DNA from: an uncultured virus (IMG/VR IMGVR_UViG_3300044912_000278)
Taxonomy: Duplodnaviria; Heunggongvirae; Uroviricota; Caudoviricetes
Strand: one strand, 5' to 3'
IMG/VR virus record: IMGVR_UViG_3300044912_000278
DNA: 64,000 nucleotides
The position numbers and the translations under genes are program-made. This document shows, in pieces, positions 9,922-39,700 of this stretch (position 1 is the stretch's first letter; each line of letters begins with the position of its first letter). Under the pieces are notes generated by a model. That model worked only from the letters and a program-made list of their open reading frames with translations, made no database searches and was not told the origin of the DNA.

Positions 9922-10749
9922 ATGGCGAAGAACCCTTTAATCGATTATTTTAGACAACCAAAAATTTATATTTCATTACCTTCAAAAGGAATGTATAATA
10001 AATTAGGGTCACTCAACGGTGATGCTACAAACATTCCAATTTACGGAATGACAGGCATGGATGAAATAATAATGAAAACCCCTGATTCAATGTTATCAGG
10101 TGAGAGTACAGTTAAAATTTTTGAAAGTTGCTGTCCTGCAATTAAAGATGGCTGGGAAGTAACTGCATTAGACACTGATGTATTATTAACTGCAATTCGA
10201 ATTGCAACATACAGCAATATTATGGCAATTACACATACTTGCCCAAAATGCAGTGCTGAAAATGATTATGATGTTGATCTAAGTACAGTAATTGAACATT
10301 TTGCAAAATGCGAATATCAAAATACAATAGAATTACCTGGATTACAATTAAAATTACAACCATTAACTTATAAACAATCCACTGAATTTTCAATTCGTAA
10401 TTTCCAATTACAACAACGATTATCAGCTTCGTATAAAATAGAAGATGCAGAACTACAAAATCAAGAAGTAGCAACAGTATTTGTTGAATTAGGACATATT
10501 CAAAATGATATGTATGCAGCAAGTATCGAATCAATTGATATCGGCACCGTAGTTGTAACTGAAAAACATTTTATCATTGAATGGCTAAAAAATTGTGATA
10601 AATCAGTGTTTGATACTATTCGTGAGCAGTTTGCAATTAACAAAGATTTATGGAAAATTCCAAATGTAAACGTTAAGTGCGGTAGTTGTGATAAGGATTC
10701 GTCTGTTGCTATTGATTTAGATCAGACAAATTTTTTCGCTCCAGCCTAA
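9922..10749 (+). CDS. gp26: Baseplate hub assembly protein (T4 gp26-like)
   Basis: YFRQPKIYISLPSKG, D.DVLLTAIRIATY, two CxxC motifs, C-terminal NFF. Confidence 0.8.
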   Translation: MAKNPLIDYFRQPKIYISLPSKGMYNKLGSLNGDATNIPIYGMTGMDEIIMKTPDSMLSGESTVKIFESCCPAIKDGWEVTALDTDVLLTAIRIATYSNIMAITHTCPKCSAENDYDVDLSTVIEHFAKCEYQNTIELPGLQLKLQPLTYKQSTEFSIRNFQLQQRLSASYKIEDAELQNQEVATVFVELGHIQNDMYAASIESIDIGTVVVTEKHFIIEWLKNCDKSVFDTIREQFAINKDLWKIPNVNVKCGSCDKDSSVAIDLDQTNFFAPA

Positions 10750-10792
10750 TTGGATTATCTAGGTCACAAGCTGGAGATGTTCTAATTAGGCT
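10728..10792 (+). promoter_or_regulatory. Putative programmed -1 ribosomal frameshift signal
   Basis: In-frame heptamers A_AAT_TTT (10728-34) and T_TTT_TTC (10731-37); 5-nt spacer; 12-bp stem AGCCTAATTGGA (10743-54) / TCTAATTAGGCT (10781-92). Confidence 0.75.
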
Positions 10793-10970
10793 AGACGATG
10801 AAGTAATGGCATTTAAACGCGAGCTTTATAGATTATGTTGGTATATGCGAGGTGGTGTATCAATTAACGATCTCCTATACAACTTATCATATGAAGATCG
10901 TAATGCGATGTATTCAGTAGTTAAAGAAAATATTGAATTAACAAAGACGTCAAGGATGCCGTTACTTTAA
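10737..10970 (+). CDS. gp51-like baseplate assembly frame (-1 extension of gp26; internal ATG at 10806 would give 54 aa)
   Basis: Open -1 frame RSSLIGLSRSQAGDVLIRLDDEVMAFKRELYRLCWYMRGGVSINDLLYNLSYEDRNAMYSVVKENIELTKTSRMPLL*; absent from ORF track. Confidence 0.7.
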   Translation, partial: RSSLIGLSRSQAGDVLIRLDDEVMAFKRELYRLCWYMRGGVSINDLLYNLSYEDRNAMYSVVKENIELTKTSRMPLL

Positions 10971-11884
10971 TCGGAATCTGCATATTTTAATACAAGATCA
11001 CCTTGTTTATTTCGTTTAAAACGATCAGGGGTATATCCTTGTGCTTTATCTGACGCTTGTTGAGCAGCTATATCAGCAGGGTTTGTTGATGGTTTAGCAG
11101 TAGCAGTAGCATCAACTGGTTTATTAGTTGTTGCTGTTGCATTAGCAGGTTTTTCTGTTGCAGTAGGTTTAGTAGCTGTTGCGTCTATAGGTTTATCAAT
11201 TGTAGCAGCTTGATCAGCAGGTTTTTCTGTTGTAGCTGCTGCATCAGCAGGTTTTTTAGTTGGCTCACCTGTTGCAATGCTGTCAGCTTCTGCAATTGCA
11301 TCTTGCACCATTTTACTAAATTGGTCAACTGCTTGATTAGCTAATGCACCGACATCTTTAACACCGTTAATTGTTCCAAATGTTAGAAATTTAGAAAGCA
11401 TTATTCTGCCTTCTTCTGACGCAATTTTCTGAAACACGTATGTTTGTGCACCTGCAGATAATAAATTAATTGTATTTGCAATAACTGGCCCAACACCGGG
11501 AATAATTCGTATAAATCCAAGCAATGAGCTGATAGATCCAAATACTATTTTTGTTACTAATGCTGAGGCTAAAGATGAAATTAGCAAACCCATTTGGATA
11601 TTATGTTCTTCGTTATAATCCATTTGAGCTTCTTTTGAATTTTTTGATTGTTTTAAAACATCGTTAGCATTTGACATATTTGTAAAATATGTATAAAACG
11701 GTTTAAGTAAGAAAAATAAGCCAGCTGCTTTTAATAATTTTAATGCCGCATTTGCAGCTGTAGAGAAGAAGCCCTCTTGCAATGGCTTAGACGTAGTAGC
11801 AGATGCAATTTCTGATAGTTTTCGTAGTTCTTGATGAATGAGATATTCATTCGGTGTTTTAGCAGTAATCTCGTATATTTTCAT
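10967..11884 (-). CDS. Hypothetical protein with hydrophobic core and low-complexity KP-x-D-AT repeats; possible virion protein
   Basis: 305 aa; ATAAATA upstream (11931-11937); degenerate repeats at about 11090-11260. Confidence 0.7.
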   Translation of the reverse strand: MKIYEITAKTPNEYLIHQELRKLSEIASATTSKPLQEGFFSTAANAALKLLKAAGLFFLLKPFYTYFTNMSNANDVLKQSKNSKEAQMDYNEEHNIQMGLLISSLASALVTKIVFGSISSLLGFIRIIPGVGPVIANTINLLSAGAQTYVFQKIASEEGRIMLSKFLTFGTINGVKDVGALANQAVDQFSKMVQDAIAEADSIATGEPTKKPADAAATTEKPADQAATIDKPIDATATKPTATEKPANATATTNKPVDATATAKPSTNPADIAAQQASDKAQGYTPDRFKRNKQGDLVLKYADSD

Positions 11885-12032
11885 TTATAATCCTGTTTGA
11901 TAGATCGTACTATCCCTTAATTGTTATTCATATTTATTAAAAAATAATAATCATCTTAAGATGAACTAGCGTTCATCTGTATTTCGTTATCACTCAATAC
12001 ATTTTTATAGAAGAAACAAAATATAAATTAAT

Positions 12033-12075
12033 ATTTAAATATGAAATAATAATTTAAATATGAATTAATAATTTA
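12033..12075. repeat. AT-rich 19-bp tandem repeat (2 copies plus partial)
   Basis: atttaaatatgaaataata / atttaaatatgaattaata / attta, inside a nearly pure A/T tract at about 12000-12090. Confidence 0.8.
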
Positions 12076-12089
12076 TTTAATAATAAAAA

Positions 12090-12530
12090 GATAGATATCA
12101 CTTTGGAGTCAGATGCACCCTAATAAAACTGGATGCAAGAAATCACCCCATCGCCATGGAATTGCAGTAAGAATTTAATGACTGTAGACTCTCGCTATTG
12201 GCTACCTCCCAACCAACACTTACAGGTATTTTTAAGATATAACTTTCAGGTGCTTTGTATATCATTACGAAATTGTTACTATGTCTAGTATTCTACAGAT
12301 TCTACGGACTCAGCATGCGAGCTTTTTGTCCACCATTCCGATTAAACAAAGCATTGACACCAATGGGGTGTTGCTTTAAGGCATCCTTATTGCGTTAAGG
12401 GTAGTGTTTAAAAGTCGCTATGCAATTAGCGATTTGAACAGCGGTTCACACATCAGGAACTTATCCAGCAGTATTATTATTCCGGCCTGCTAACCTTATG
12501 TTGCATTATATATTAAGTGTTTTGTGTGTT
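12090..12530 (-). ncRNA. Candidate large structured non-coding RNA (family not recognised)
   Basis: No ORF in track; GC higher than flanks; at least 10 stems, with G-U pairs mostly favouring the minus strand; perfect TATAAATA upstream; ends approximate. Confidence 0.6.
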
Positions 12531-12538
12531 CTGTCTGA

Positions 12539-12546
12539 TATTTATA
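12539..12546 (-). promoter_or_regulatory. T4-type late promoter TATAAATA pointing into the non-coding element
   Basis: Plus strand tatttata; next same-strand ORF is about 650 bp away and has its own motif. Confidence 0.7.
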
Positions 12547-12576
12547 ATTGTGTTGTTAAGCAACCCGCAGAAGTGA

Positions 12577-12996
12577 TTAACCTTTACGAGCAGCTAATTC
12601 TGCAAGATCATTTGCACGTTCATTACCTGGATTACCTGCATGAGCTTTAACCCATTGCCAATCTATAGTATGTGCAGCAGCAACAGTTTCTAATTTAAGC
12701 CAAAGATCACGATTTAAGTAATCAGTACGACCTTTCTTTTTCCAATTAGGAAACCATTGTGTAAAACCGTCAACGAGATATTTTGAATCAGAATAAATTC
12801 TAACTTTACATGGTCTTGTTAATCTAGAAAGTGCTTCAATAGCAGCTTGCATTTCCATGCGGTTGTTAGTAGTTTTTGGTTCTGTTCCAGAAAATTCTTT
12901 TATAACGTCTTTGTATTGCATAGTTATTCCCCATCCGCCTTTGCCTGGATTAGGTACGCATGCGCCGTCTGTATAAATTATTACAAGTTCTTCCAT
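12577..12996 (-). CDS. rnhA: Ribonuclease HI (bacterial type)
   Basis: IYTDGAC.PNPG.GG, TTNNRME, YSDSKY, WVKAHAG..GNERA motifs. Confidence 0.96.
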   Translation of the reverse strand: MEELVIIYTDGACVPNPGKGGWGITMQYKDVIKEFSGTEPKTTNNRMEMQAAIEALSRLTRPCKVRIYSDSKYLVDGFTQWFPNWKKKGRTDYLNRDLWLKLETVAAAHTIDWQWVKAHAGNPGNERANDLAELAARKG

Positions 12997-13076
12997 AGTG
13001 TTTTGTGTTAGATTATATTGTGTTTAGTTCTTAAACAAATATTTATCTGAACAACTTCTCCACCTTGTTAGAAACG

Positions 13077-13105
13077 ATTATACAGTAATAGTATAAGGAT
13101 GTCAA
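13077..13105 (-). promoter_or_regulatory. Consensus sigma70 promoter TTGACA-N17-TATAAT upstream of rnhA
   Basis: Plus strand attata 13077-82, 17 nt, tgtcaa 13100-05; a second, late-type motif at 13040-46. Confidence 0.88.
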
Positions 13106-13109
13106 CTGA

Positions 13110-13631
13110 TCATTTTGCCAAACATAAAGTCTTAACAGCTTCATTGTTTGCATTCCAAAAAGAATCGTAATCTGTAAACACCCATTTACCGTTCTTTTTG
13201 GAATGATAGTCTACACTTTTTTGTAGTTTGAATTTTTTAATATGTTTATGTTCAAATGCAACATACGAGCCTTTGCGATTAAACTTCATCATAATGATAT
13301 TAAAATCATCTGTATCAGCAACTTCTAAAGTTTGCTCAATCCAAGTATCTAAAATCTTAATTTCACCTGCAGTAAACAATTGATGAAATGGAAAATCAGC
13401 ATAGGATTTACATTCGGCATTAAAATGTTTCCAATTTAATGGCGGTACAATATCACCCTTCATAGCACGAATTTGTCCTTCATGTAAGAAGTCTTTACGC
13501 ACTGCATTCTTACCTCCGATATAAGCACCGCTGCCTGGTACCCTCATAAAATGACTTCCATATAAAGAGCTTAAATGTTTTGATACGGTGTTTTCCCAAC
13601 TGTTCCCTTTTGATTTGCTCTTACTCGGCAT
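13110..13631 (-). CDS. Holliday junction resolvase-like PD-(D/E)xK nuclease
   Basis: SKSKGNSWE, RVPGSGA, GDI...ECK (Hjc-like pattern). Confidence 0.75.
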   Translation of the reverse strand: MPSKSKSKGNSWENTVSKHLSSLYGSHFMRVPGSGAYIGGKNAVRKDFLHEGQIRAMKGDIVPPLNWKHFNAECKSYADFPFHQLFTAGEIKILDTWIEQTLEVADTDDFNIIMMKFNRKGSYVAFEHKHIKKFKLQKSVDYHSKKNGKWVFTDYDSFWNANNEAVKTLCLAK

Positions 13632-14027: not shown

Positions 14028-15797
14028 TTATCGGATTTCTAAATCTGTATCGTAGGAAGTAAAACCGTTTTCCTTTACAACTCTAAGTACATTGTTTACA
14101 CGTCCAATTAATTCTTCTTTATGACTAATTAAGAACACGTTTTTATGACGTTCTCTTGCCATACCTTTTAGTACAGTTAACGCACTTTCAATACCATTAG
14201 CATCTAAACCGTTGTCAATAAGTTCGTCTACAAATAACAAGTTAATACCTTGATATAGACTTTCCCACACATCACGGAATGCCCAAGACATACCTAAAAT
14301 CAGTCTGTTACGTTCCCCACGGGATAAATTGTCAAAATCTAAATCTTGTCCTAATTGTGTAATTTCGACAGTTAAATCATTTTGAAATACTACATTATGC
14401 GGCAACCCCATCTTATCTAAGTAGTAAGTTAACCGATTGTTTAAGTACGCTAAATTTTGATCTATAATTTTTTTACGGATAAAACTGTCTTTATTTGTGA
14501 GTAGTTTAAGCAAAAACTCTTGGTGATCTTTGAGTGCGTTTGCTTCGTTAATCTTATCCCAACTAATCTCTTGTAATGCAGCATTCCGCATTTCGTCAAT
14601 TTGTTCTTGGTATGGATCAGTGTCAACTGCTTTAACTTCTAACTGTTGTTCTAAAGATCTAAAGTTAGTTTGGTGTTTTAATGCTTGCTCAAGTGTGTCA
14701 TAATATGTATCTGGTCTAGTTTCAATAACTGTAATATTAGCTAGCTCATTGCATATTTTATTGTAATCAGATGACACTTTATCAAAATATTTTTGTGCTT
14801 CGAGTAAGTGTTGTTCGGCAGTGTTAAGTAATTCTGTGTGTTTGTGATCGTGTAATTCTTGTTCACAAGCATGACATTTTTTGTTATCAAGTGCGTTAAT
14901 TTCTCTAACATATTTGTCTCTAGTTTTAGTAGCTTGACTTGATGCAGACTCTAAAGTTGCTTTTTCTTTGTTAAGACTTGCTATTGTTGCACGTTGTTCT
15001 AAGTACTCTTTTAGTAACGAATGATTAGCAACTTCAGCTTCAATGTCTACACTTTCCATTTCTACAATGGCACGAGCAAGTTTTTCAAGATCAGTTTCTT
15101 GTTGACTATACCATGCTTTTTGTCTTAATAACAGGGTATTAATGCTTTGTTGAATACGCTCATTTGACTTTTTAGCAGCTTCAATGTTTGCAGTTTCTTG
15201 ATAAATTGTATCTTTGGTTTGTCTAACTTGCTCTTTAAGTGTTTCGGCTTTTTCACTTAGCAATGTAATACCTAACAGTTGTTCAATGATTTCTCGTTGA
15301 TCATTTGCTCTCATTGACAAGAATGGTTCTGTGTAAGTGTTCAATGCAACGATATGTTTGAACATATCATGACTCATACCGAATAAGTGATGCAAGTCTT
15401 TTTGTGTCTCTCTCATATCGCCTTGTGCATCGTCTGCTAACACTTGTGATTCTTCGTTAACAAAGAACTTAAGAACAGTTGGTTTGCGTCCACGTTCGAT
15501 GCGATATGTGTTACCGTCTTTTTCAAAAGACAACGTAACTAACATGTTCTTATTATTGATTTTATTGATTAAATTATCTTTTTTGATGTTAGTAAGAGCA
15601 GAACCGTATAGCGCGTAACTAATAGCGTTTAACATTGCAGTTTTTCCTACTCCGTTTCTAGATCCAGCGTCATCACCGCCTTGATCTAGGTTTTCTCCTA
15701 ATACAAGTGTTAAGTTATCAGTAGTTAAGTTTACTGCTTGCGTTTGGTTACCGATTGAGAGAAAGTTTTTTGCAGTTATTGATTTAAGTGTTATCAT
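14028..15797 (-). CDS. gp46: Recombination endonuclease ATPase subunit (gp46 / Rad50-SbcC-like)
   Basis: Walker A NGVGKT, zinc hook CHAC, signature LSRGE, Walker B LLFVDE, ISH. Confidence 0.95.
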   Translation of the reverse strand: MITLKSITAKNFLSIGNQTQAVNLTTDNLTLVLGENLDQGGDDAGSRNGVGKTAMLNAISYALYGSALTNIKKDNLINKINNKNMLVTLSFEKDGNTYRIERGRKPTVLKFFVNEESQVLADDAQGDMRETQKDLHHLFGMSHDMFKHIVALNTYTEPFLSMRANDQREIIEQLLGITLLSEKAETLKEQVRQTKDTIYQETANIEAAKKSNERIQQSINTLLLRQKAWYSQQETDLEKLARAIVEMESVDIEAEVANHSLLKEYLEQRATIASLNKEKATLESASSQATKTRDKYVREINALDNKKCHACEQELHDHKHTELLNTAEQHLLEAQKYFDKVSSDYNKICNELANITVIETRPDTYYDTLEQALKHQTNFRSLEQQLEVKAVDTDPYQEQIDEMRNAALQEISWDKINEANALKDHQEFLLKLLTNKDSFIRKKIIDQNLAYLNNRLTYYLDKMGLPHNVVFQNDLTVEITQLGQDLDFDNLSRGERNRLILGMSWAFRDVWESLYQGINLLFVDELIDNGLDANGIESALTVLKGMARERHKNVFLISHKEELIGRVNNVLRVVKENGFTSYDTDLEIR

Positions 15798-16665
15798 TAT
15801 AATGGGTAATAAGTTGAATAAGGGTGTTAAGTTCTATAGAACATTTAATATGTTTAGATATATTGTCTGTGTAAGGCATCATTACTAAGTTACAAATATG
15901 ACCAATTATTTCCGGAGGAACGCTGTCTGTAAATCCCTGCCAAACACTAAATTTATGGTCTAAATGATAAGTTAATCGACCTCGTTTATCGTAGTTTTCT
16001 AAAATGGTCAAGTTTTGTTTTCTCGTTTCAGCCCATACTTGTCTTTTATATTGTTCAAACTCAGAATGTAAATCAGGCGACATACATAATCCTAATTTTA
16101 CCTTTGTATCTATAACTCTTTCAAAAATTTCTTTAGTTTTTTCTTTAGGACGGCGGGCAACAGTAAGTTTTACGTTAGTAGAAACTTTCTGCTTTAATAA
16201 CGTTGCTTCATCTTCTGATAAATGTAACCATCGATTTTTTCGTCTATTAATATCATTTATTTCTTCAATTGATTTAGATTTTAATGTTTCTTGCCATTTT
16301 TGTTGGCGTTGACTCCAAATTTCAAATCCTTCTTTATCACCGTATTTGTTAATACATATTTTTTTAGAAAAGTTAGTCTGAAACTCTGATAGTTTTAAAG
16401 TTGCATCTTCGAATGACAGCCCTTTTGTTAACCAAAATTCTAAACATCGAGGAGATAATTTTCGTTTTTCTTCAGCAGACATTTCTTTTCGTTTTTTACC
16501 TCCTTGTTGCTGTCGTTCTTTTACTAATAAGGTTGCTTCATCTTCTGAATATCCTTTGTTGATATAATATAAAACATTATTTGGTCTTCTAATTGCAATT
16601 TGATATTTTGCGTCATCTTCTGAATATCCTTTTGTAATCCAGTATGACAAAGAAAATACTGACAT
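15784..16665 (-). CDS. Putative HNH-like homing endonuclease with N-terminal repeats
   Basis: Repeats YWITKGYSEDDA / YYINKGYSEDEA / FWLTKGLSFEDA; C-terminal HLDHKFS...HICNL...N; separates gp47 and gp46. Confidence 0.65.
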   Translation of the reverse strand: MSVFSLSYWITKGYSEDDAKYQIAIRRPNNVLYYINKGYSEDEATLLVKERQQQGGKKRKEMSAEEKRKLSPRCLEFWLTKGLSFEDATLKLSEFQTNFSKKICINKYGDKEGFEIWSQRQQKWQETLKSKSIEEINDINRRKNRWLHLSEDEATLLKQKVSTNVKLTVARRPKEKTKEIFERVIDTKVKLGLCMSPDLHSEFEQYKRQVWAETRKQNLTILENYDKRGRLTYHLDHKFSVWQGFTDSVPPEIIGHICNLVMMPYTDNISKHIKCSIELNTLIQLITHYNDNT

Positions 16666-27300: not shown

Positions 27301-27746
27301 CAGTTAACTATAAAATATTGTTCGGTGCAACTGCTGATCCGGAATTGCAAGCAGTATTTAAAATTACAAAAACTCCAGGACAGATAATATCTGATAACGA
27401 TATTAAATCGCAAGTAATAGTTGCAATTAATACTTTCTTTAATTTAGACAACTGGGATTTTGGAGATACATTTTTCTTCACAGAGCTAGCAACATTTGTA
27501 ATGAATCAACTAGCACCAAAAATTTCAAATTTTGTAATTGTACCTCGAAGACAAGGTTTAAATTTTGGTAGTTTATTCGAAGTTAAGTCATTAAGTAACC
27601 AACTTCTTATAAATGGAGCAACGGTTGATGATATTGAACTTATATCCGGAATCACTGCAACTAATATTAAAACATCAAATGTAATGTCTCTTGATAGTAC
27701 AATAAATCGTCAATCTATAACTAGTTCTACATATGGGAATATCTAA
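24309..27746 (+). CDS. gp6: Baseplate wedge subunit (gp6-like)
   Basis: DFENLR, DFNDYIESSE, ENFLELAERR, FSDGTFG, TQNRMITGEDY motifs. Confidence 0.85.
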   Translation: MSATDRQNRLLVAEDWKKIYQSFRSADFQSYDFENLRRTMVDYIRQNYPEDFNDYIESSEYLALLDVIAFLGQSVAFRVDLNARENFLELAERRDSILRLSQLVSYNAKRNIPAHGLLKFTSVNTTQDIYDSNGNSLSGQTVTWNDSSNPIWYDQFIKVINAALPGTQRFGNPVDSSIIYNIPTEQYTFQSATADVPIYAFSKTVAGRSMNFEVTSTTFAGQDYIYEEAPKLKNRLSCVYRNDGHGYGSAGSGFFFNFTQGTIGHSQFTVDQPRSNDLINIASTGINNTDVWLYRLDKNGDETETWTQVPSLKGNNIIYNSVNKNIKNIFGVTTRANDAITLNFSDGTFGNMPYGTFKVYYRLSNGLSYTVNSKDIRNVSITIPYMSNMGQQESLTISLALSTTITNAESSETNASIKANAPASYYTQNRMITGEDYNICPLSVSQQVLKVKAVNRSSSGISRYFDLVDPTGKYSSTNLFADDGVIYKDNYESYTKFSYINKTDIEGVIYNVVNNILTKSELRNFYYSKYTDFAKLGSNLQVGWRAVTSDVVSSTGYIYDLQATGEVYKVGPQYTVSDLKYVTLGSLIKFVAPTGYYFNLDNQNKLEEAISVNYAPNTSLYIWAAVVAIVNDGRANGIGVLSSGAGPITLNVNIADGAIISQIIPKCRTTLDLNVINTMIDLIFENKSFGLSYNAAQQVWQLVFESNIDSTSQFSLINQGSITNTQKDASWMLLFTTDNEYYTITSRETRYIFESDSQIRFYFDSSEKVYDSRTNSVVRDKIKVLSINKQISSYNSYTTDFVWDVVSEYIGLDGYVDNKKIVVSFADSDDNGIADDPELFTNLVLYQQYILQEKYQISLGQEDYRYVANNSKVWIIPELTTIGDVGLYYYIPGSNTVTQASSTGVLEPTLDYKVYEGRANLKFQYIHNANYESRIDPGVSNIIDVHVLTKGYDTAFRQWINGAAISKPLPPSADELYNTLSPSLNLIKSISDEIIYHAVNYKILFGATADPELQAVFKITKTPGQIISDNDIKSQVIVAINTFFNLDNWDFGDTFFFTELATFVMNQLAPKISNFVIVPRRQGLNFGSLFEVKSLSNQLLINGATVDDIELISGITATNIKTSNVMSLDSTINRQSITSSTYGNI

Positions 27747-30700
27747 TGGTTAACAAAAAAATAACTTTACCTAGAAGTACAGCAACCGATACAAGCAACA
27801 GTGATAATACTGCAAATTTTTTACCTAGTTATTACCGAACAGACACTAATAAAAAATTCTTACATGCAACAATTAATCAGTTAACCCAGCCGGGTACTGT
27901 AAAAAAAGTTAACGGGTATATTGGTCGATTAAATGCTAAAGCATCCTCATCGGCTGATATTTTTATAAATGCGCCTACTCAGGTTAGGCAAAATTATCAA
28001 TTAGAACCTGGGTTAGTAATAACTGATAATATAGATAATACTGTATATCTAAAAGATTATCAAGATTATATTAATCAGTTGCGTGTTAACGGCGCAAATG
28101 TATTTGATCATTCTAGATTAAATAATCAAGAATTTTACAGTTGGGATCCACATATCGATTGGGATAAATTTGTTAATTTTCAAGATTACTATTGGTTACC
28201 AAACGGTCCTAATACTATTAGTATTAGTCATGCTGCTACGACTGACCAAAGTGTATTTACAGTAACGATTGATACGGCTGGTCTTGATTCTGCATATGTG
28301 TTTACACCTAATGGATTTAATAGAAATCCAACAATTACATTATATAGAGGAAAAACTTATGAATTTAACATTCATAGTACTGACAACGTGTTTAGTTTTA
28401 AAACTATTCGAACTGAAGGTACACTAAACCGATACATAACACCTACATTAGATAACAATTCAATTACTTCGGGTAAAATTATATTTACCGTACCGTATAA
28501 TGCACCGGATGTGTTATTTTATGTAAGCGAATCTAATATTGATCTTGGTGGCACAATTAGTATTTTAGATATTAACACTAGCGGATTCATTGATGTTGCT
28601 ACTGAAATTATAGGCAAACAATCATTCCAAATGCCAAATGGTAAATTATTAAGTAATGGTATGTGTTTATTGTTTACTGGTGAAGTAACACCGGCATTAT
28701 ATGCAACCGGAAAATTTTATGTTGAAGGTGTTGGCACTGCTATTAAATTAATTCCAGAGCGTGATTTAGAAATAATTGCACCATATACTACCTCCGAAAT
28801 GATTTTATTTGATGCAACCCCGTTTGATACAACACCATTTAGTGATGCTACTACATTTGCAGGAAATCCAGATTATATTGTAATTAACAGAAGCAGTACT
28901 GACAAAAATCAGTGGAGCCGATATAATAAATGGTTTCATAAAAGTGTAATTGAAACTAGTGCTGCAATTAATGGAATAACTGCAACTGTTGATCAGTCTA
29001 TGCGTGCAGTTAGACCTATTATTGAGTTTGATGCTAATTTAAAATTATTTAATTTTGGAACAACTGCAATTACTGATATCTCAATTATTGATCGGTATAC
29101 AACTGATGCATTTTCAACAATTGAAGGATCACTTGGTCACACCGTTGACAACATCCCATTACAACATGGACAAAGAATTATATTTACTGCTGATACTGAT
29201 CAATTAGTAGCAAACAACGTGTATCGTGTTGAATTTATTGATGTGAAACATACAACTGACGGATTCGGAGTTTCTAATAGTCGACAAATTCGACTTGTAT
29301 TAGAATTAAAACCATCTGAAAATCAAGTTGTATTAGTGCAACAAGGCACAATATCACAAGGTACTATGTTTTGGTATAATGGTAATACGTGGATTAGTGC
29401 GCAACAAAAAACTAAACTAAACCAACCACCATTATTTGATGTAGTTGATAGTAATGCAATAAGTTTTGGTAACGGTGCTGTATATCCAGGTACTACATTT
29501 AAAGGTACTTCTGTATTTTCGTACAAAGTTGGTACCGGAATAGCAGACAGCAAATTAGGGTTTCCTCTATCGTATAAAAATATTAATAACATTGGTGACA
29601 TAAATTTTAATTTTACATTATTAACTGATATGTTTCAATATGATCAATCAAGTAACACTATTACAAAAACAACAGATGTAGGATATTTAATTAAAACTGT
29701 TAACGGACACGTGAATTATGTTAACGGCTGGCAAACAAGTTCTGTATCAAATGTGCAACCAGCGGTTCGCATTTACAGAAATTCAGAGATGACAAATAAT
29801 TTTGATATAGATATTTTTGATACGTTACCTGCATTAATAGACATTAGTGTTCGCGTTTATATAAATGGCATGCGATCACCAGCTAGTAATTGGGTTATTA
29901 AAACTACGGCAACTAGCGTTACAGTTGGCCAAGTGCCGTTGACACAATATCAAATTGTGTTTAACACACCTGTGTTGTTAACTGATTGCGTAACTATAAA
30001 AGTGTATTCGCGTACTCCTATTAACACAAATGGGTTTTATGAAATTCCGATTAATTTACAACATAATCCACTAAATGGTGTACTGACTGAGTTTACACTA
30101 GGCGAAGTAATTGATCACGTTGATAGCATTATTGATAACATTTATACAGGTACATCATTTGTTGGTATATTCCCGGGTCTTAGTAATTTGAGAGATTTAG
30201 GAAATGTAACACAATTTGGTACAAAATTTGTTCAGCATAGTGGACCACTTAGTTTGCCAATGTATCATTTAACATCGGCTAACAATGTAATTAATGCGAT
30301 TGAAAAATCAAGAGACGACTATTGCAAGTTTAAACGTGCATTTATGGTGTTAGCTGAAACATTAGGAGTAGATACCCATCCTATTAATCATGTAAATTTA
30401 ATTTTGCGTACACTAAATGCAGATGTTCCAGCAACTGCTCCTTACTACTTTAGTGACATGGTACCATATGGAGCGTATTCGAAAATTGATGTTACTGTTC
30501 GTGACCCTGAATCTAATATTTTCTCATTATCTAAAGTGTTTAGTTTATCAGAATTGTCAACTTCGGCAGTTCTTATATATGTAAATGACCGGCAGTTATT
30601 GCACGGTAAAGATTATACGTTTAGCAATCAAGGATTTGTAATTGTTACTGCACTATTAAACGTTGCTGATGTAGTATCAGTGTATGAATATAGCACTACT

Positions 30701-33700
30701 GACGGATGTTTGATACCAGAAACACCTACTAAGTTAGGTATCTGGCCAAAATATGAACCAAAAATATTCTTAGATACTACATTATTAACTCCTTCAAGAA
30801 TGATACAAGGACATGACGGTAGTTTAATATTAGCATATAACGACTATAGAGATGATTTGATTTTAGAATTAGAAAAGAGAATTTATAATAACATTAAAAT
30901 TAAATATGATCCTACTATTTTTGATATATGTGATATGATTCCTAGTTATGCTCGAACTACTGATTATAGCTTAGACGAATTTAATTTAGTGTTATCTGCA
31001 AACTATTATCAATGGTCAACACATGTTAAAAAAGATTTTTCAATACCTTCATTACCTGGAACTAGAAATAATCCTTTTACATTTAATTATAGCAGCAATT
31101 TTGCTCCAGATGGTCGACCAACACCTGGATTTTGGAGAGGTATTTATCAATGGGTGTATGATACTGATCGTCCACACTTATGCCCGTGGGAGATGCTAGG
31201 AATTAGCGAAGAACCAATTTGGTGGAGTACAGTATACGGATTGGCACCGTACACTAGTGATAATTTAGTGATGTGGAATGATATTAGTAACGGATTGGTA
31301 AAAGAGCCAGATCAACCAATTGTTAAGAAAACTAAATTTGTTAAATCTTTTTTGATGAATTATTTGCCCGTTGACAGCAATGGTCGATTAGTTAGTCCAT
31401 TAACAAATAATATTGCTAGCGGAACATCATCAAGTGATGTTCAATTATCCTTTAAGTTTGGTGATGTATCGCCAACTGAAGCTGCTTGGAGACGTCATTC
31501 ACATTATCCATTTAGCGTATTAAAAACACTATTATTATTAAAACCTGCAATGACAATGGGATTAACACTAGATAGAAACCGAATTGTTCGAAATTTAACA
31601 GATCAATTAATATATTTAGATACTGGTGTACGTATTAGACTGGCTGATATTAAATTGCCGAGTGTGTATTTAAGTAGCACCCGGGTACAAACTGCAGGTC
31701 TTATAAATTATTTGGTAAATTATATTGATTGTAATGAATTGTCGTTATACAATGAATATAAAAATAATTTATCAAAAGTAACTGCGCAGTTATGTTATCG
31801 TGTTGGTGCATTTACTAGTAAAGAAAAGTTTAATTTATTATTAGAATCAAAATCACCGTCGTCAGTTGGCAATATTTTTATACCACCAGAAGATTATAAA
31901 GTAATAATGAATACGTCATCTCCGATTGCATCATTAGTATATAGCGGTGTTACTATTACTAAAGTAGAAGGTGGATTCGAAGTTACCGGATATAGCAAAA
32001 CCCAACCGTATTTTACATACTATGCTAGTTATTATAGCGGTTCAACTATTACAGTTGGCGGTATTTCTGCAGTATATTCCGTATGGACACCGTACCATTA
32101 TTATGTAGTTGGATTTGTAGTTAAGTATAACAATTCATATTGGCAAACTAAAATTTCACATAATTCAACTGAATATTTTTCAATAGATCATTTCACACTG
32201 TTACCATCTATTCCGATTGTTGGTGGTTCTAAGGTTGAATTTAGAACACGTTGGGAGTCTACTGAAATAATTGTACCATATGGTACTAAATTTTCGTCAA
32301 TACAAGAAGTAACAGATTTTTTATTAGGTTATGGAAAATGGTTAACAGATCAAGGATTTGTATTTGATGACTATAACGATCAGTTAGGGTCAGTATCCAA
32401 TTGGGAAACTAGTGCTAAAGAATTTATTTTTTGGACTGCAAACAATTGGGGAGTATCTCAACAGTTATGGGATGATTGGGTACCGGATATGTTAATTACC
32501 TTTGATACAATTGTTCGATATACCGGAGATTATTATCGTGCAATTAGAACAATGCAAGAACCAGTATTTAATGAGACTGATTATGAATTAATAAACGGTC
32601 TTAGTTCTAATGGAAATTCAGTCATAACACTAAGTCCGGCTGCAACTAAACTGCAATTTAAAACTATTTTAAGTGTAGTAGACGATATTACTAATCCGGA
32701 TTATGTGTATGAGATGTTTAATGCGCAAGGTAGTCCAATTCATTCTAATCTAGTAAATTCATATAGGTCAGGTAACATAGTAAGTTATTCCACTACTGAT
32801 ATTAACGCATACATTTATTGTGCTAGTTTTTACTTAGTGCAAAAAGAACATGTTATTGTGATGAATAATGCAACTATGTTTAATGATGTAGTTTATAATC
32901 CAGAAAGTGGATATAAACAAGACAAAATTAAAGTGTCCGGATATGTTAGCATTGAGTGGAATGGCTCATTAAATGTTCCGGGATTTATCGTAGACAGTGC
33001 AATCATACATGAATGGGAAATATGGAAAGATTATTCAGTAGGTGATATTGTTAAACACCAAACATTTTATTATAGTGCAAGTAAATTTTTGTCAGGTACA
33101 CAAAAATTTAATGATTTAGACTGGATTAAGTTAACAGAAAAACCAACTGCAAAATTATTGCCAAACTGGAATTATAAAGCAACTCAATTTACTGATTTCT
33201 ACAGTTTAGATAGTGACAATTTTGATGCAGCTCAACAAAAAATGGCTCAGCATCTTATTGGATACCAAAAAAGACAGTACCTAGAAAATATTATTCAAGA
33301 TGACACTAGTGAATTTAAATTTTATCAAGGTATGATAATTGAAAAAGGTACAACAAATGTTCTTAACAAACTTTTTGATGTTTTGAGTCTCGATGGTCAA
33401 GAAAGTATGGAGTTTTATGAAGAATGGGCAATTAGAACCGGACAATACGGCGCAAGTTCAGCATATAATACTGTTGAATTTATATTAGACGAGGCATTAA
33501 TAAGAACTAATCCGCAAGGAGTTGAATTAGTTACGACTACACAACAACTTGATGATCGTATTATTCGACAAATTCCGTCTGATGTGTATGTAAAACCATT
33601 AGGATATACTCCGTATATTTGGCCTGCATTATCGTCAACGTCATCTATATTACGATCAAGCGGCCATGTTAGAGCTGATGAAGTAACAGTTACCATTCGA

Positions 33701-36700
33701 TCACCTGAAGAGTTAACGACCCTTGATCCATCAGTATTACCTATTAACTCGTATGTGTTATGTACCTTTGAAAATGCAAGTTGGAATGTGTACCAAATTA
33801 TATCATCTAAGTTATCACTTATTGCAATAACAATGATAGATGATACCACTGTAGAAATAACAGTTAATTCTTACATTAATTTTGATGTTGATTCATATGT
33901 TGGTATTAAACACAACTCGTTTAATTCATTTTATAAAGTAGTAAGTATCGGAACAAACAATTTTAGAATTAACATAGCTGGATTAAAGATTCCGACTAAT
34001 GTTAAAACTATTTCACTTGTTACTGCAAAATCTCGTCGTGTAAGTTCAATTGATAATATGAATTATACGTTAGCAGATTTAGGAACATCATCATTATTAT
34101 GGGCAGATAACACATTAGCTAATGATCAGACATGGGCAACTTGGAAACATCAATCTGTTTATACAAGAAATACGGTGTTTAATCAACAGTTAATTGATAA
34201 TTTAAAATTTGGAAAAAGCGTTGCATCAACTGCAGACGGTAACTTAGCAGCAATCACAACTGCGCTTGGCGAGGTTATGATCTACGATAGGTTAGGTAGT
34301 TCTAAACCATGGACTCTCCGCCAAGTAATTAATAAACCGTTTATATCATCAGTTACTCCTATTGCAGACACAATTGCAACTGTTGTTGCTATATCTAAAG
34401 ATGGTAAATGGCTAGCAACTGGATCACCAACTGCTAGTTTTGCAACGGTGTCGATGCCAATGACTGGTTTAAATGTAACTGATATTAACGGTTTAAATAC
34501 CGAGTATCCTGGGCAAGGTGTTGTGTCAATATACGAAAACACCAATAACATGTTTACATTAGTTAACACAGTTACGAGCCCAATGCCACAGTCGCATGAA
34601 AATTTTGGATTAACTTTAGAATTTAGTATCGGTGCATCGCAATCATTGTTTGTAGGAACATCTCGTAGTTATAGTACAGTTTATCGATTGCAGTATATAG
34701 AAACAATCCGTGCAGGTACATTGTATAATCCAAATGGCAGTACTTCAACTTCTATTCAAGTTTCGACAACTGTTGATATTGTACCTGGCATGCGTATTAG
34801 AGGTACAAATATTGATAACATTGTAACCGATGTTATTGATGATACAACTATCGTTCTTAATACGCCGTTGTCTGCAGATCCTGATGGTAATTTAATATTT
34901 TCTACATTAGAATGGAACTATTGTAATGAAGTATATTATAACGATCAGCCTGGTAGCAACTATGGTAAATTAATTAGGGTGTCAGCCGATGGCGCCATTT
35001 TAGTAATTTCTGCACCATATGGGTATGGGGTGTTTAGTTCCGGTCAGGTATACATATATGAATACGATATTATGTTAAATTCTTACATACTGTTAACGAC
35101 GTTGTCATCAACTAGTTCAAATTCACATAGTATTATGATGGAACAGTATGGTCAAAGTATTACGGTATCAAATAACGGTGAATACATAGCAGTATCAACA
35201 CAAATGAACACGTACACAGTTAACAGTAACTTACAGTGGGTACAGATGGCATCAATCGGAATAGTGTATATTTATGAACGTAACGGAAGTGACTATAACT
35301 TGTATTATGAACCGATTGCTGCATCAGATATTACTAGCGGCTTTGGTACAGACATTCAATTCACAAATGATTATTCAACACTTGTAATTTATAGTCAAAA
35401 TACAGATAACACACACCGAATGTCTATTGATGCTGGCACAACTACATTTGATGCAGCAGAATTAGATACGATTAATACTACTACTATTACATATACACTT
35501 ACTGAGTTTGGCGGCATTGACGTCTATGATCGGTATGGACTGAGTTGGGTTATTAGTGAACGATTAACTACTTTATCATTATCTGAAGATGGATACGGAA
35601 CATCTATTGTTGCAACACCGGACAGTATACTAGTTAGTTCACCGTTTGCAGAAACTAGAGTTTCACAGTACATTAATTTGCAAACTGGCATCGTATACGA
35701 TTATGTTAAACCGACCAACCAGTACAGTTGGACAATAAATCACTATCCTGTTGCCAAACCCGATGTAAAGAAAATTAAACAAGCATTTTTATATAATAGA
35801 TCAACTAACAAATTAATAAAGCATTTAGATCTAGTTGATTCGTTACAAGGTAAAAATTCAAGTATTGCTGATCAGGAAATTAAATTTAAATCGTTTTACG
35901 ATCCAGCAGTATACAGTTCGCAAGTAGACAATCCAACATGGGTTAATGACGGTCTTGTAAATATAGATGATGGAATAGCATGGACTACAAATCAAGTAGG
36001 TGCATTATGGTGGGATTTAAGAACAGCTAAATTTATTGATAGTTATACGGATGATGTAGTTTATAGAAACAGTACATGTAGTACACTTGCATTTGGTGCA
36101 TCGATTGACATATATGAATGGGTTGAAACAGATCTATTACCGTCGGAGTGGGATGCAGAGGCAGACACTGAAGCAGGATTAGCAATTGGTATAAGTGGAA
36201 AGTCGTTATATGGTGATAATGCATTTAGTTACTGTCAACGATATAATAAGTTAACTCAACGTCTTATAAACACTTATTATTTTTGGGTTAAGAATAAAAT
36301 AACAATACCGTCAATTCCGGGAAGAAATTTGTCAGCAAATACGGTATCTAATTTAATTGCAAACCCGCGAGGCGCAGGGTACGAGTATTTGGCATTAACT
36401 GGATTAAATTCGTTTAGTTTAGTAAATGTAAAATCACTATTACATCATACTGATGCGGTATTATCAGTTGAGTTTTGGAATGGCAATACTGTTGATCAAA
36501 ATATTCATTCACAGTGGAAACTTATTAGCACTTCTCCTAGAACAACTATACCTGCAAATATAGAACAAAAATGGTTTGATAGTTTGTGTGGGAAAGATTT
36601 AGGAAATCGAGTAGTGCCTGATCAATCGCTGCCAGTTAAATTGCAATATGGAATTGAAAATCGCCCACGCCAAAGTATGTTTATTAATCAATACGAAGCA

Positions 36701-39700
36701 TTAAAGCAACTAATTGAGCAAACTAACATAGTGTTACGCTCAAATTTAATAGTTGATACTCGTAATATGGCAAACTTGCACAAGTATGATGAACTTCCAA
36801 GTGTAACACGCGGATTATACGACGACATTATTGATACTGATTTAGAATTACGATTTGCAATTGCAAAGTCGTATATTAAACCAGAAATTACACCAATAAT
36901 AACAGATAGTGCAATTACTGGAATTATCGTAGTGTCTCCTGGACGCGGGTATTTAATAGCTCCGTATTTTACAGTTATTGGCAGCGGTACAGGTGCAATT
37001 ATTAAATCGGTAATTAATGTAGCTGGTCAAATCATTGGTTGTGAAATTATAAGATCAGGAGTTGGGTATAATAGTACTACTACATTAGATATTAGAGATT
37101 ATTCATTATTAGTTAAAAGTGATTCTGCATCAAATAACGGATGGAGTATATACGCGTATCAATCAGCTACTGAAACATGGAGTAAGACACTATCTCAAAC
37201 TTATAATACTACCCGATATTGGGATTTAATTGATTGGTATGCAGATGGATATACACAATTTACAGCAATTACTCATTCAATTAATACATATGCTGATTTA
37301 AATTTGATTAGTGTTAAAATTGGAGAACATGTAAAAATAAACACAACAAGTTCAAATCGATGGGTTCTGTTAAAAAAATATGCAAATGTAACATCAGTTG
37401 ACTGGACACTTTCATATAAAGTTATTGGTAGTCAAAACGGTACAATTCAATTTAACTCATTATTATATGATTTTAACGATACAGTAATTGGGTATGATGG
37501 ATTGTTGTATGATTCTGGAGTATTTGATAACGGCGCATCAACCGAGTTACGGATAATTTTAAATTCAATAAAGGACGATTTATTAATTGACGACTTAAAA
37601 TCACAATATTTAAGTTTATTTTTCTCTAGCATTCGATATGCAATGTCTGAACAGACATATATTGATTGGATTTTTAAAACAAGTTTTGTTAATGTGACTC
37701 ACAAAGTCGGTAATTTACATCAGTCAGTTACATATCGTAATGATAATTTATCAAATTTTGAGGATTACGTATCAGAAGTAACACCGTATAGAAGTCAAAT
37801 TAGAGAATATGTAAGTTTATATAATAATATTGATGTAGGTAAATTTGCAGTAACCGATTTTGATATGCCACCTGCAATTATCAATGGTAGTATTGCCCCT
37901 GTAGTTGCGGTAATTAACAGTGATGATGAAATTATAGTATCCTCTGGAAATATAGATAGTTATCCATGGAAAAGTTGGGCCGATACTGTAGGTTTTTCAG
38001 TAGTATCAATAAAATTATTAGATGGAGGTTCTGGATATGTGTCTGAACCGACTATTAAAATTTCTGGAGCATCCGGTTCAGATGCTCATGCAACTGCATT
38101 TATTTTAAATGGTAAAGTAAATCGAATTAATTTGATAACATATGGCTCAAAATATTTGTCAATACCGACTATTTCGTTTGAAGGTGGGTTACGTGCAGGC
38201 GGAGTTTCTGCAAGCGCAATTGCAATTTTAGGAAACAGTGTTGTCCGATCTAATCTAGTTGCTGTTAAATTTGATAGAGTTACATCAACATACGATGCAA
38301 TTACATTATCTCATACAGAAACATTTGTTGGAACCGGATCAAAATTGCAATTTCCGTTAATATGGGTTCCGAATGTACAAATTGGGTATTCTAGCGTAAC
38401 AGTTAATGGAATTTCGGAATTGCGTGATAACTATACACTTCGAATTGTTACTTCTAATATTAACGGAACTGTAAAGTATTCTGGATCAATAACATTTGTA
38501 ACAGCACCACCTGTTGGATACGAAATTAATGTAACATATATGAAAGACGTGTCGATGTTAACAGCTGCTGATCGTATCCAGTATTTTTATAATTCTCCAG
38601 ATGGCGGATTAGGACATGAACTATCACAGTTAATGACCGGTGTTGAATACGCCGGTGTGATACTTAGCGGAAAAGATGTTAATACTGCAAACGGTTGGGG
38701 AAGTGGCGGTTATTATACTGATAAATGGGATAGTTATAAATCGGTAATTGATGATTACAGTATAACAGTGTCTGCTGATGTGCATGATATTCAAATGCCA
38801 TATGTACCAGTAGTTGGTACTATGCTAAATGTATATTATTATCCAGTAAGTATTGCAGATACATTTAATACTGATGGTAGAACGTTAACTTACACCTATT
38901 CTAATTATGAACAAGTTCCGACTGTTAATTTATATAAGGTTGTATCAACTTCATTAGTAACTGCAGCTTTAAGTGATATAATTTATGTAACTTCGGTATA
39001 CGGCATTAATGTTGGTGATACAGTTACTGATTTTACTAATATCAAATGGACTAAATTATTAAAAGCAACGTCTACTAGTATTGCTAACGGACATTATTAT
39101 GTAACATTATCATCGATTGATCAGTTAACTATCGGTATGCCGTTATTATTCTTAGGTAATGAATTTAGCAATTTGCAAGACGGATATACATATTATGTTA
39201 AAACTATCAGTGCTACTAACCGTATTACAATTAGTGGCACAGTAAGCGGACCTGAAATTGTATTAACTGCTGATACCGGTAGTATGACAGTAGTAGTTGG
39301 TGCATTCAAGTATGATACTACTGTAATTGAAGTTAATAAAATAACTAATGCTGTAACATTATCTCAACCAGTAAGTACTATTATATTAGAAAATACTTCA
39401 TTAAAATTTGGTCGAACATTGTCAAAGTATCAAGATTTAGCAAATATCAGTAGAACTAAATTTACATTAATGAAAAAATTACCAATTGGCATGATTATAG
39501 AAGTATCGGGTACAAGAGAAGCTATTAGACTTGATGATGATAATTATGGTAATATAACTACTATACCTAAAAATACTAATGCAATCATGTCACCGTATAT
39601 TGCAGACGGTACCGGCGATATGATTATTATACCTACTAATTATGTAGATGTATACGGAAACACTCGTACATTTACTGTTTCAGCAGGTGACAGGTTTGTG

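Follow-up and report, generated by a model that had tools for sequence, protein, structure and literature searches.

The analysed window, a stretch of 64,000 nt from a T4-like jumbo phage, carries on its minus strand a conserved, covarying, non-coding RNA fold of about 400 nt, which by analogy may represent a ColE1-like pre-primer RNA and replication origin, unrelated to ColE1 by sequence, a reading that we hold with rather less than even confidence. Covariation supports the view, put forward in a sequence-only reading of the same DNA, of a minus-strand, multi-domain, non-coding phage RNA, and of the roles then guessed at (ribozyme, scaffold or primer) the comparative evidence leans, short of proof, to the primer.

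The genes seen in the window include a late sigma factor, SbcC/SbcD, a RusA-like resolvase, RNase HI, a baseplate hub and a portal; by resolvase the closest cultured relatives are PA5oct, SCTP-2 and Phosso (46-51%), and complete 372-kb genomes exist among close uncultured kin. The element occupies a 692-nt gap (11885-12576); its neighbours, RNase HI on one side and a 305-aa orphan ORF on the other, are encoded on the minus strand (Table 1). This had been called the only long gap in the window, and it is the longest stretch between ORFs of at least 90 aa when counted beyond the window's first kilobase. The frames inside it span only 40-51 aa and carry indels of 1-2 nt in close relatives. The 305-aa ORF has no PHROG or Pfam match, and only 35 nt of it can be aligned, in one of four close kin. 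Upstream of 129 elements the neighbouring gene is a GIY-YIG nuclease in 74, a resolvase in 24 and RNase H in three, the RNase HI gene adjoining the RNA in the window's clade only. The slot after SbcC is held by turns by the RusA-like resolvase or by a 142-aa GIY-YIG nuclease (L347:6816-7244); genome G003 yields the GIY-YIG gene but no resolvase match, which suggests that the two replace each other. Elsewhere in the window, at 9922-10970, the baseplate hub gene is followed by a short overlapping gp51-like frame, and homologues terminate with two conserved FF codons; a 293-aa gene between SbcD and SbcC (15784-16665), with repeated 'WITKGYSEDDA'-type units and, by eye, an HNH-like C-terminal end, is probably a homing endonuclease; and the tail region holds ORFs of 4355 aa (27746-40813) and 2730 aa (45916-54108).

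Table 1. The element and its surroundings, in the order of minus-strand transcription (window positions).
Feature	Position	Strand	Basis
RusA-like Holliday junction resolvase gene, upstream neighbour	13110..13631	-	phrog_244 E 1.5e-17; PF24608
Perfect sigma-70 promoter TTGACA-17-TATAAT, before RNase H	13077..13105	-	12/12 match
Late-type promoter core GATAAATA, before RNase H	13040..13047	-	sequence match
RNase HI gene	12577..12996	-	PF00075 E 1e-43
Late-type promoter TATAAATA, core TAAATA	12539..12546	-	sequence match
Structured RNA core, about 400 nt, assigned to subfamily D of the extended Polynucleobacter-1 family	12094..12497	-	covariation, partner-swap test, model matches
P1 hairpin 12492-87/12471-66, loop starting with invariant GGCC	12466..12492	-	pair 12488/12470 significant; partner-swap test
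P2 12460-57/12447-44 with basal extension around pair 12464/12438, in place of a 12435-48 hairpin	12436..12465	-	covariation
P3 hairpin	12415..12432	-	2 significant pairs; 5/6 pairs change on both sides
P4 12411-06/12347-42, enclosing P5 and P6/P6b (the Polynucleobacter-1 multiloop)	12342..12411	-	4 significant pairs in P4
P5 12400-12396/12389-85, between CUACC and GAUGCC	12385..12400	-	1 significant pair
P6/P6b, 12377-72/12353-48 and 12370-67/12361-58	within 12342..12411	-	partner-swap test
Pseudoknotted central domain: P8 12298-92/12188-82 crossed by P11 12223-19/12171-67	12167..12298	-	partner-swap test
Central domain, also P9, P10 (12263-58/12241-36) and P12 (12217-11/12203-12197, AGGUA loop motif)	12167..12298	-	partner-swap test
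3' direct repeat 1 GGGGTGATTTC, the family's twin repeat in degenerate form	12139..12149	-	assigned by eye in window
P13 hairpin, between the twin repeats	12114..12137	-	partner-swap test
3' direct repeat 2 AAAGTGATATC	12094..12104	-	assigned by eye in window
92% A+T tract, candidate unwinding element (putative role)	12000..12090	.	composition
GA-GTG-ATA-AC-GA variant of the GAGCG-N-AGCGA mini-hairpin motif	11984..11995	-	motif match
Second hairpin GATGAAC-GCTA-GTTCATC, minus-strand C-GNNA-G loop	11960..11977	.	also scores as plus-strand terminator
Late-type promoter AATAAATA of the downstream 305-aa ORF	11931..11938	-	sequence match
305-aa ORF, fast-evolving, downstream neighbour	10967..11884	-	ORF list

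Conservation and covariation in relatives, which the sequence-only reading had set as its own check, are both present. The element is held at 74-82% in all 16 close loci (L003-L018), and in four kin its identity of 75-84% compares with 70-74% for the baseplate hub gene and with an almost unalignable downstream ORF. Among 57 non-redundant members of the window's subfamily (D, defined below), nine column pairs are significant at E 0.05 against a custom-made, tree-based null; all nine are base pairs, all lie in the 5' half, and none falls in the central domain. Across 13 sequences 94.5% of the cells of the 5' domain are paired, far above shuffles and slid controls, and 18 of its 27 pairs, including all six of P4, have changed on both sides. 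The 3' helices rest on a partner-swap test (up to 15 subfamily sequences, 8-15 for these helices; p 0.0002-0.0014) in which relatedness is not modelled, and the equivalent of the crossing helix covaries in sister subfamily C. Most of the stems that had been listed from the letters alone are borne out by partner swaps (12466-71/12487-92, 12415-32, 12385-400, 12348-53/12372-77, 12358-61/12367-70, 12182-88/12292-98 with n=8, 12236-41/12258-63, 12197-203/12211-17 and 12114-20/12131-37); the stem at 12435-48 is weak and clashes with the covarying pair 12464/12438, and that list overlooked the best-supported helix of all, P4, as well as the pseudoknot helix P11, both direct repeats and the 11960-11995 hairpin module. 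Folding energy no better than that of shuffles, which the sequence-only reading had named as refuting it, is what both strands show (z -0.05 and +0.16), and the RNA is taken as real nonetheless because covariation overrides folding energy. Counts of G.U against A.C pairs are clear in subfamily C (33:10) and weak in A (119:84). A long-range pairing 12444-39/12335-30 found no support (partner-swap p 0.12). One D copy (L248:898-1370) has its P10 module in tandem duplicate.

That the class could not be recognised holds for the window, but not for its syntenic relatives, which match RF01718 (Polynucleobacter-1; gathering cut-off 37 bits), a model without a match in the window or its genome. Rfam matches in the window itself are at chance level only; as had been stated, neither Rfam nor ARAGORN finds a tRNA, tmRNA, RNase P or group I/II intron there, and Rfam finds no known ribozyme, ROOL or GOLLD. 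In more distant phages the corresponding place at most resolvase loci is likewise a gap, of about 350-1100 nt, and RF01718 matches seven of 15 such loci. The gaps form subfamilies A (Rfam-positive), C and D (that of the window), to which an island form is added; RF01718 finds none of 11 D or four C loci at E up to 10. A model built from D (R1) matched two of 16 type A phage loci, both on RF01718 intervals (L118 E 0.003, L138 E 0.02), and four further type A loci at the correct place with E 0.2-1, and since it misses 14 of the 16 the link between D and A is remote; it matched none of eight island loci, and its matches in C arise partly by construction. Sequences bridging the subfamilies (L208, L243, L262, L283, L294) were recruited with a pattern from the first hairpin. 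By remote homology the window's element belongs to a divergent subfamily of a family of about 400 nt whose 5' third is RF01718. It shares with Polynucleobacter-1 the helix order (P1, P2, P3, then P4 enclosing P5 and P6, with the CUAYCC..GGAYG hairpin), GGCY in loop 1, the P2 loop UCUGAUGUGUGA common to Rfam-positive loci, the genomic slot, and the 3' domain and hairpin module downstream. The CACUAYCC..GGAYG hairpin motif is present as CACUACCC..GGAUG at 12407-12381, whereas GGGAYGGAA between P2 and P3 is absent, CGCUGUUCAAA standing there instead and pairing back to the P2 base, and the central domain resembles that of C rather than A. The Rfam model spans 141 of the roughly 400 nt and does not reach the pseudoknot, twin repeats or DNA module, and about 250 nt more RNA (pseudoknot, AGGUA motif, 3' domain) follow the RF01718 part in phages and chromosomal copies alike. 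Polynucleobacter-1 was described from 16 sequences, with no function given in the available text (Weinberg et al., 2010; PMC2864571), the sole paper naming it in our literature search; that search, with supplements covered by term only and subscription journals and non-Rfam viral RNA catalogues outside it, returned no published description of the full-length RNA or of the islands. The same slot also holds other subfamilies with different 5' ends (GCCGAGGUAAGGCUC hairpin; L023:5568-6073, L024:5574-6000, L021, L057).

The most distinctive trait of the family lies at its 3' end, where the last hairpin is flanked by ACTC-x and ATCT-x, x varying among elements and being alike within one. Both anchors are found in 123 of 158 elements, and in 114 of these the twin 6-mers are identical (shuffled mean 27, maximum 42). 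For each variable position of one repeat the strongest covariation is with its counterpart in the other, and the complement of an element's own repeat occurs inside it in only four of the 123. On trees the changes are recurrent and joint, joint steps equalling single-column steps at five of six positions in subfamily C. Island copies have repeats identical over 7 nt in 13 of 17 cases, in five types, and 18 of 44 new D members show 6/6 identity against none of 37 control windows, the anchors being missing in 16 of the 44. The distance between the repeats varies from 39 to 81 nt. In the window's own branch the ACTC/ATCT anchors are lost and the repeats degenerate, GTGAT remaining common to both, with a mismatch in L010. 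Identity, not complementarity, is what would be expected if the RNA of one repeat paired with the template strand of the other, and as the repeats differ among copies within one genome, base pairing fits better than a single protein, although gene conversion or a two-site binder could also keep them in concert.

Beyond the repeats and the A+T tract comes a module of DNA-type mini-hairpins. Of 137 elements, 103 have on the RNA strand, no more than 200 nt downstream, a GAGCG-N-AGCGA-type motif, its pattern written after inspection of these sequences; the opposite strand has it in seven, and upstream it occurs in two of 131. C-GNA-G hairpins number 4.7 per kb downstream against 0.06 in the core and 0.13 and 0.04 in other intergenic DNA (a density 35 to 120 times that of the latter), and their loops (GNRA 44 : GNYA 44) show no RNA-type preference. 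Mini-hairpins of the GCGNAGC and GCGNNAGC kinds are stable as DNA and much less so as RNA, and have been found at the G4 and RSF1010 priming sites (PMC13037366). An opposite-strand hairpin stands at a fixed offset after repeat 2 in the family; the window is without it, and at the position of its mini-hairpin six aligned close kin have GAGCGATAGCGA or GAGCGAAAGCGA. The strict motif has three matches in the 372-kb genome G001, each behind one of its three RNA copies; six of seven in G003 and one of two in G000 lie away from elements. The downstream module is weaker in D, where it passes a strict test in 12 of 38 members and, in a second set, in 20 of 40 against 5/40 and 3/33 in controls. Within the non-coding DNA of ColE1 the motif occurs once, at 1332, about 140 nt past the origin on the primer strand, a match which we take to be the n'-pas primosome site. 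The ColE1 origin was placed here from RNA I and the 550-nt primer (PMC5043065). The phiX174 intergenic region has no match to the pattern. A microvirus match by blastn proved to be an AT-rich chance match and not the hairpin motif.

The element had been credited with a perfect late promoter of its own, and TATAAATA is indeed present upstream on the minus strand, with a start presumably near 12533 if T4 promoter spacing applies, but it is not family-wide: most close kin have TGTAAATA or CATAAATA in its place, and TAAATA (here counted with two free bases in front) lies within 120 nt upstream of 11 of 153 phage elements and 13 of 44 further D members. Transcription of most phage elements would arrive by read-through out of the nuclease gene. 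The late-promoter 8-mer is not enriched (four found, 13.4 expected). TAAATA, the late-promoter core of the clade, precedes 19 of 78 genes of the window's genome against 2.3 expected from coding DNA, an expectation that is low because intergenic DNA is AT-rich, and 79 of 371 and 51 of 397 genes in two further genomes, capsid, tape-measure and baseplate genes included, so that a late promoter at the RNA is plausible. The sigma-70 promoter before RNase H could provide early read-through into the RNA. Contigs from three RNA runs of two studies match the element at 100% (12162-12315 and 12370-12560; 12330-12514; 12216-12390), one spanning the promoter; these runs were selected for holding this stretch, their contigs carry neither strand nor level, and two of the runs extend to other genes as well. 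Four more runs with small shares (X6-X9) carry no weight as evidence, and in X6 the element is not covered.

The RNA is present in three copies in G001 and two in G003, both complete genomes, the copies belonging to divergent subfamilies, and single sets of core genes mark neither genome as a chimera by that test. D copies lie mostly among varied accessory genes, the window's clade having one in a core slot. Outside phages, RF01718 scores above its cut-off in 17 of 151 genomes of Polynucleobacter (the genus of G004), and in all ten regions opened (L392-L401, e.g., L392:9800-16900) the RNA lies within a 7-kb integrative island encoding an integrase, DUF6641, a short tyrosine recombinase, two uncharacterised proteins and a clamp-loader-like ATPase; several islands are near tRNA-Phe or tRNA-Met, a tRNA being present in five of the ten regions. 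The RNA cassette there stands behind TAAATA, with variable cargo, and some islands have small MKxxEI/V-start ORFs like the phage's own. TAAATA precedes the RNA in all 18 (related) island copies, against a background of 0.045 per 100 nt, and never occurs on the other strand in 12 copies checked, which suggests that the islands are switched on by a phage; they are candidate satellites of T4-like jumbo phages. Pfam and PHROGs reveal no Rep, primase, helicase or capsid in one full island and three proteins of a second, predicted folds of two island proteins have no informative match, and comparison of island proteins in Atlas gave unnamed clusters only, plus a 14% lead to PF20109. DUF6641 has no match in four phage records, where the control was without a match too, and the island-form 3' hairpin was not found in viral contigs. 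Among cultured relatives, PA5oct and Phosso have gaps of 1-1.5 kb beside the resolvase (L025:3479-4991; L027:3987-5000) in each of which a single motif match lies on the other strand, with no profile or R1 match. RNase HI borders the Phosso gap, and the PA5oct gap holds four tiny annotated ORFs that may be spurious. The four reported ncRNAs of PA5oct lie outside its syntenic gap, for which no expression rows were found by coordinates in the published supplement, and blastn to cultured phages and plasmids gave no useful match. Beside D-type copies (L253:1032-1423, L248:470-541, G001 near 242,600) a phage tmRNA, on which the two-piece model scores too, stands with a cspA-like leader, and a tRNA called Pyl by ARAGORN also adjoins such copies.

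These features allow a model of RNA-primed initiation. The model proposes a transcript of about 440 nt, started by RNA polymerase at the late-type or upstream sigma-70 promoter, which adopts the conserved multi-domain shape, the shape itself being established by covariation. The fold would present repeat 1, which may pair with template DNA opposite repeat 2 and so seed a lasting RNA-DNA hybrid at the 3' end, where RNase H, or the polymerase's own stop, would leave a 3' end for DNA synthesis. The opened A+T tract could then expose the GNA/GNNA mini-hairpins for helicase or primase loading, by likeness to ColE1 and to single-strand initiation, and the islands, with this cassette under a late promoter of phage type, would replicate only upon helper infection. 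The discrete transcript, its hybrid with the template, the priming and the helper dependence of the islands are thus what we infer. In its fullest form, an initiator-free origin cassette built on an independently evolved class of structured pre-primer RNA, which finds its template through a variable twin repeat, is present in several copies in T4-like jumbo phages and was taken over by chromosomal satellites firing from the helper's late promoter, the model is a proposal about which we remain distinctly tentative. The global GC-skew minimum of G001 (322,935) lies inside its type A copy; however, this copy coincides with a switch in gene direction, which GC skew mostly follows, and the other two G001 copies and both G003 copies are off skew turning points. 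Against an origin stand also the degeneracy of repeats and hairpin module in the window's own branch, the rarity of RNase H upstream (3/129; an RNase HI of the host would do instead), and the differing anchors CTC and TCT, at which RNA-template pairing would therefore carry mismatches. Further, gene conversion could account for the concerted repeats, the second hairpin scores as a plus-strand terminator, late transcription is unlike the middle-mode origins of T4, and the two island proteins without an informative fold match could be the initiator.

An alternate scenario, doubtful but substantial, is a trans-acting ornate RNA like ROOL, GOLLD, OLE or raiA, that is, a stable late RNA forming multimers or binding a phage or host protein, with the downstream hairpins serving as terminator or processing signal and the twin repeats as a docking motif present twice. 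In its favour are the RNA's size, its pseudoknots and its invariant single-stranded motifs, and also the placement of D copies among varied genes, some by tmRNA or tRNA (2/12, 1/44; the third G001 copy 2 kb from tmRNA); however, no type A or C element of 141 lies within 900 nt of a tRNA, flanks permitting. The perfectly matching RNA contigs would suit it too, given that ornate-type RNA-only assemblies exist (PMC12286853), but their runs are the selected, strandless ones described above. This scenario leaves unexplained why the repeats are identical yet free to vary, and why DNA-type loops occur on both strands at fixed places. The compact pseudoknotted core, with invariant GGCC, CUACC, GAUGCC and AGGUA motifs, could be that of a ribozyme or self-processing RNA cutting or joining itself at or between the repeats, yet no Rfam ribozyme or intron model scores, the RNA holds no complementary guide for the repeats, and the RNA contigs show no joint across the element, a weak point in itself; we regard this as quite improbable.

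Another candidate is a cis-acting signal, of DNA or RNA-DNA nature, with a task other than initiation: the neighbouring junction nuclease might use it for recombination or strand transfer, packaging might begin there in step with late transcription, or it might be a non-autonomous mobile cassette in which copying keeps the repeats alike. The prevalence of GIY-YIG nuclease (74/129) and resolvase (24/129) upstream, the late-type promoter of the islands, as a satellite would carry its helper's packaging site, and the many different neighbours of D copies are consistent with such a signal, but the repeats are only 39-81 nt apart at variable spacing, copies within one genome are different subfamilies and not recent duplicates, G000, G001 and G003 (two of them complete, with controls matched) contain no reverse transcriptase (PF00078), and PA5oct, a putative member, has its syntenic gap at 76 kb, away from the terminal repeats (PMC7318152), all of which makes it unlikely. 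A retron or other RT-linked ncRNA was rejected on the same PF00078 result (0/3 genomes). Least probable, indeed very improbable, is that the RNA regulates the downstream gene in cis, as its leader or as a riboswitch, which was tentatively scored for Polynucleobacter-1 in 2010 (table in PMC2864571: cis-regulatory 'y', riboswitch '?'). Although 93 of 133 elements share their strand with the next gene, that gene is convergent in 40 and of many families; it usually has its own TAAATA (within 200 nt downstream of the element in 90 of 137), the 305-aa ORF of the window likewise having its own promoter and so not needing the RNA as leader; and what follows the Rfam motif is about 250 nt of RNA and the hairpin module, not a start codon.

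Whichever scenario predominates, the 141-nt orphan motif of 2010 becomes a multi-subfamily cassette of about 400 nt. Should the origin model be true, Polynucleobacter-1 would gain a function, the replication start of a large group of aquatic jumbo phages would be shown, folded primer RNA would extend beyond ColE1, and a likely satellite family would be exposed; if not, what is left is an ornate RNA of wide occurrence, unusual for its identity-covarying repeat, and a target for cryo-EM. The closest parallel is ColE1, whose origin comprises the RNA II pre-primer, RNase H, Pol I and n'-pas/ssiA (PMC5043065, PMC3167613, PMC4412123) and in which a G stretch of RNA II pairs with template dC to seed a lasting hybrid (PMC4412123). 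Alike in both are a promoter, a predicted one in the element, a folded RNA of 400-550 nt, no evident initiator gene, a same-strand repeat that in the element could pair RNA with template, and the GAGCG-N-AGCGA hairpin motif downstream on the non-template strand, in the element a putative primosome site. Unlike ColE1, the element has no sequence similarity to it and no plasmid match (R1 on ColE1 gives a 35-nt local match, E 4), no RNA I-like antisense RNA or Rop was found within the scope of Rfam, whose RNAI model matches ColE1 only, its repeats are 50 nt apart and not G-runs, and its motif lies about 50 nt from the RNA end rather than 140. T4 possesses several R-loop origins consisting of promoter and unwinding element, and oriF and oriG (middle promoter plus unwinding element) resemble the element in belonging to a T4-like phage, in number per genome and in a transcript followed by an A+T-rich tract; however, a large conserved RNA fold is not described as needed there in the available text (PMC4412123), and the element's promoter is late-type or replaced by read-through. 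ROOL, GOLLD, OLE and raiA are likewise large, pseudoknotted and phage-associated (PMC12286853), but the present element, without an Rfam match to them, differs in being tightly linked to twin repeats and DNA-type hairpins.
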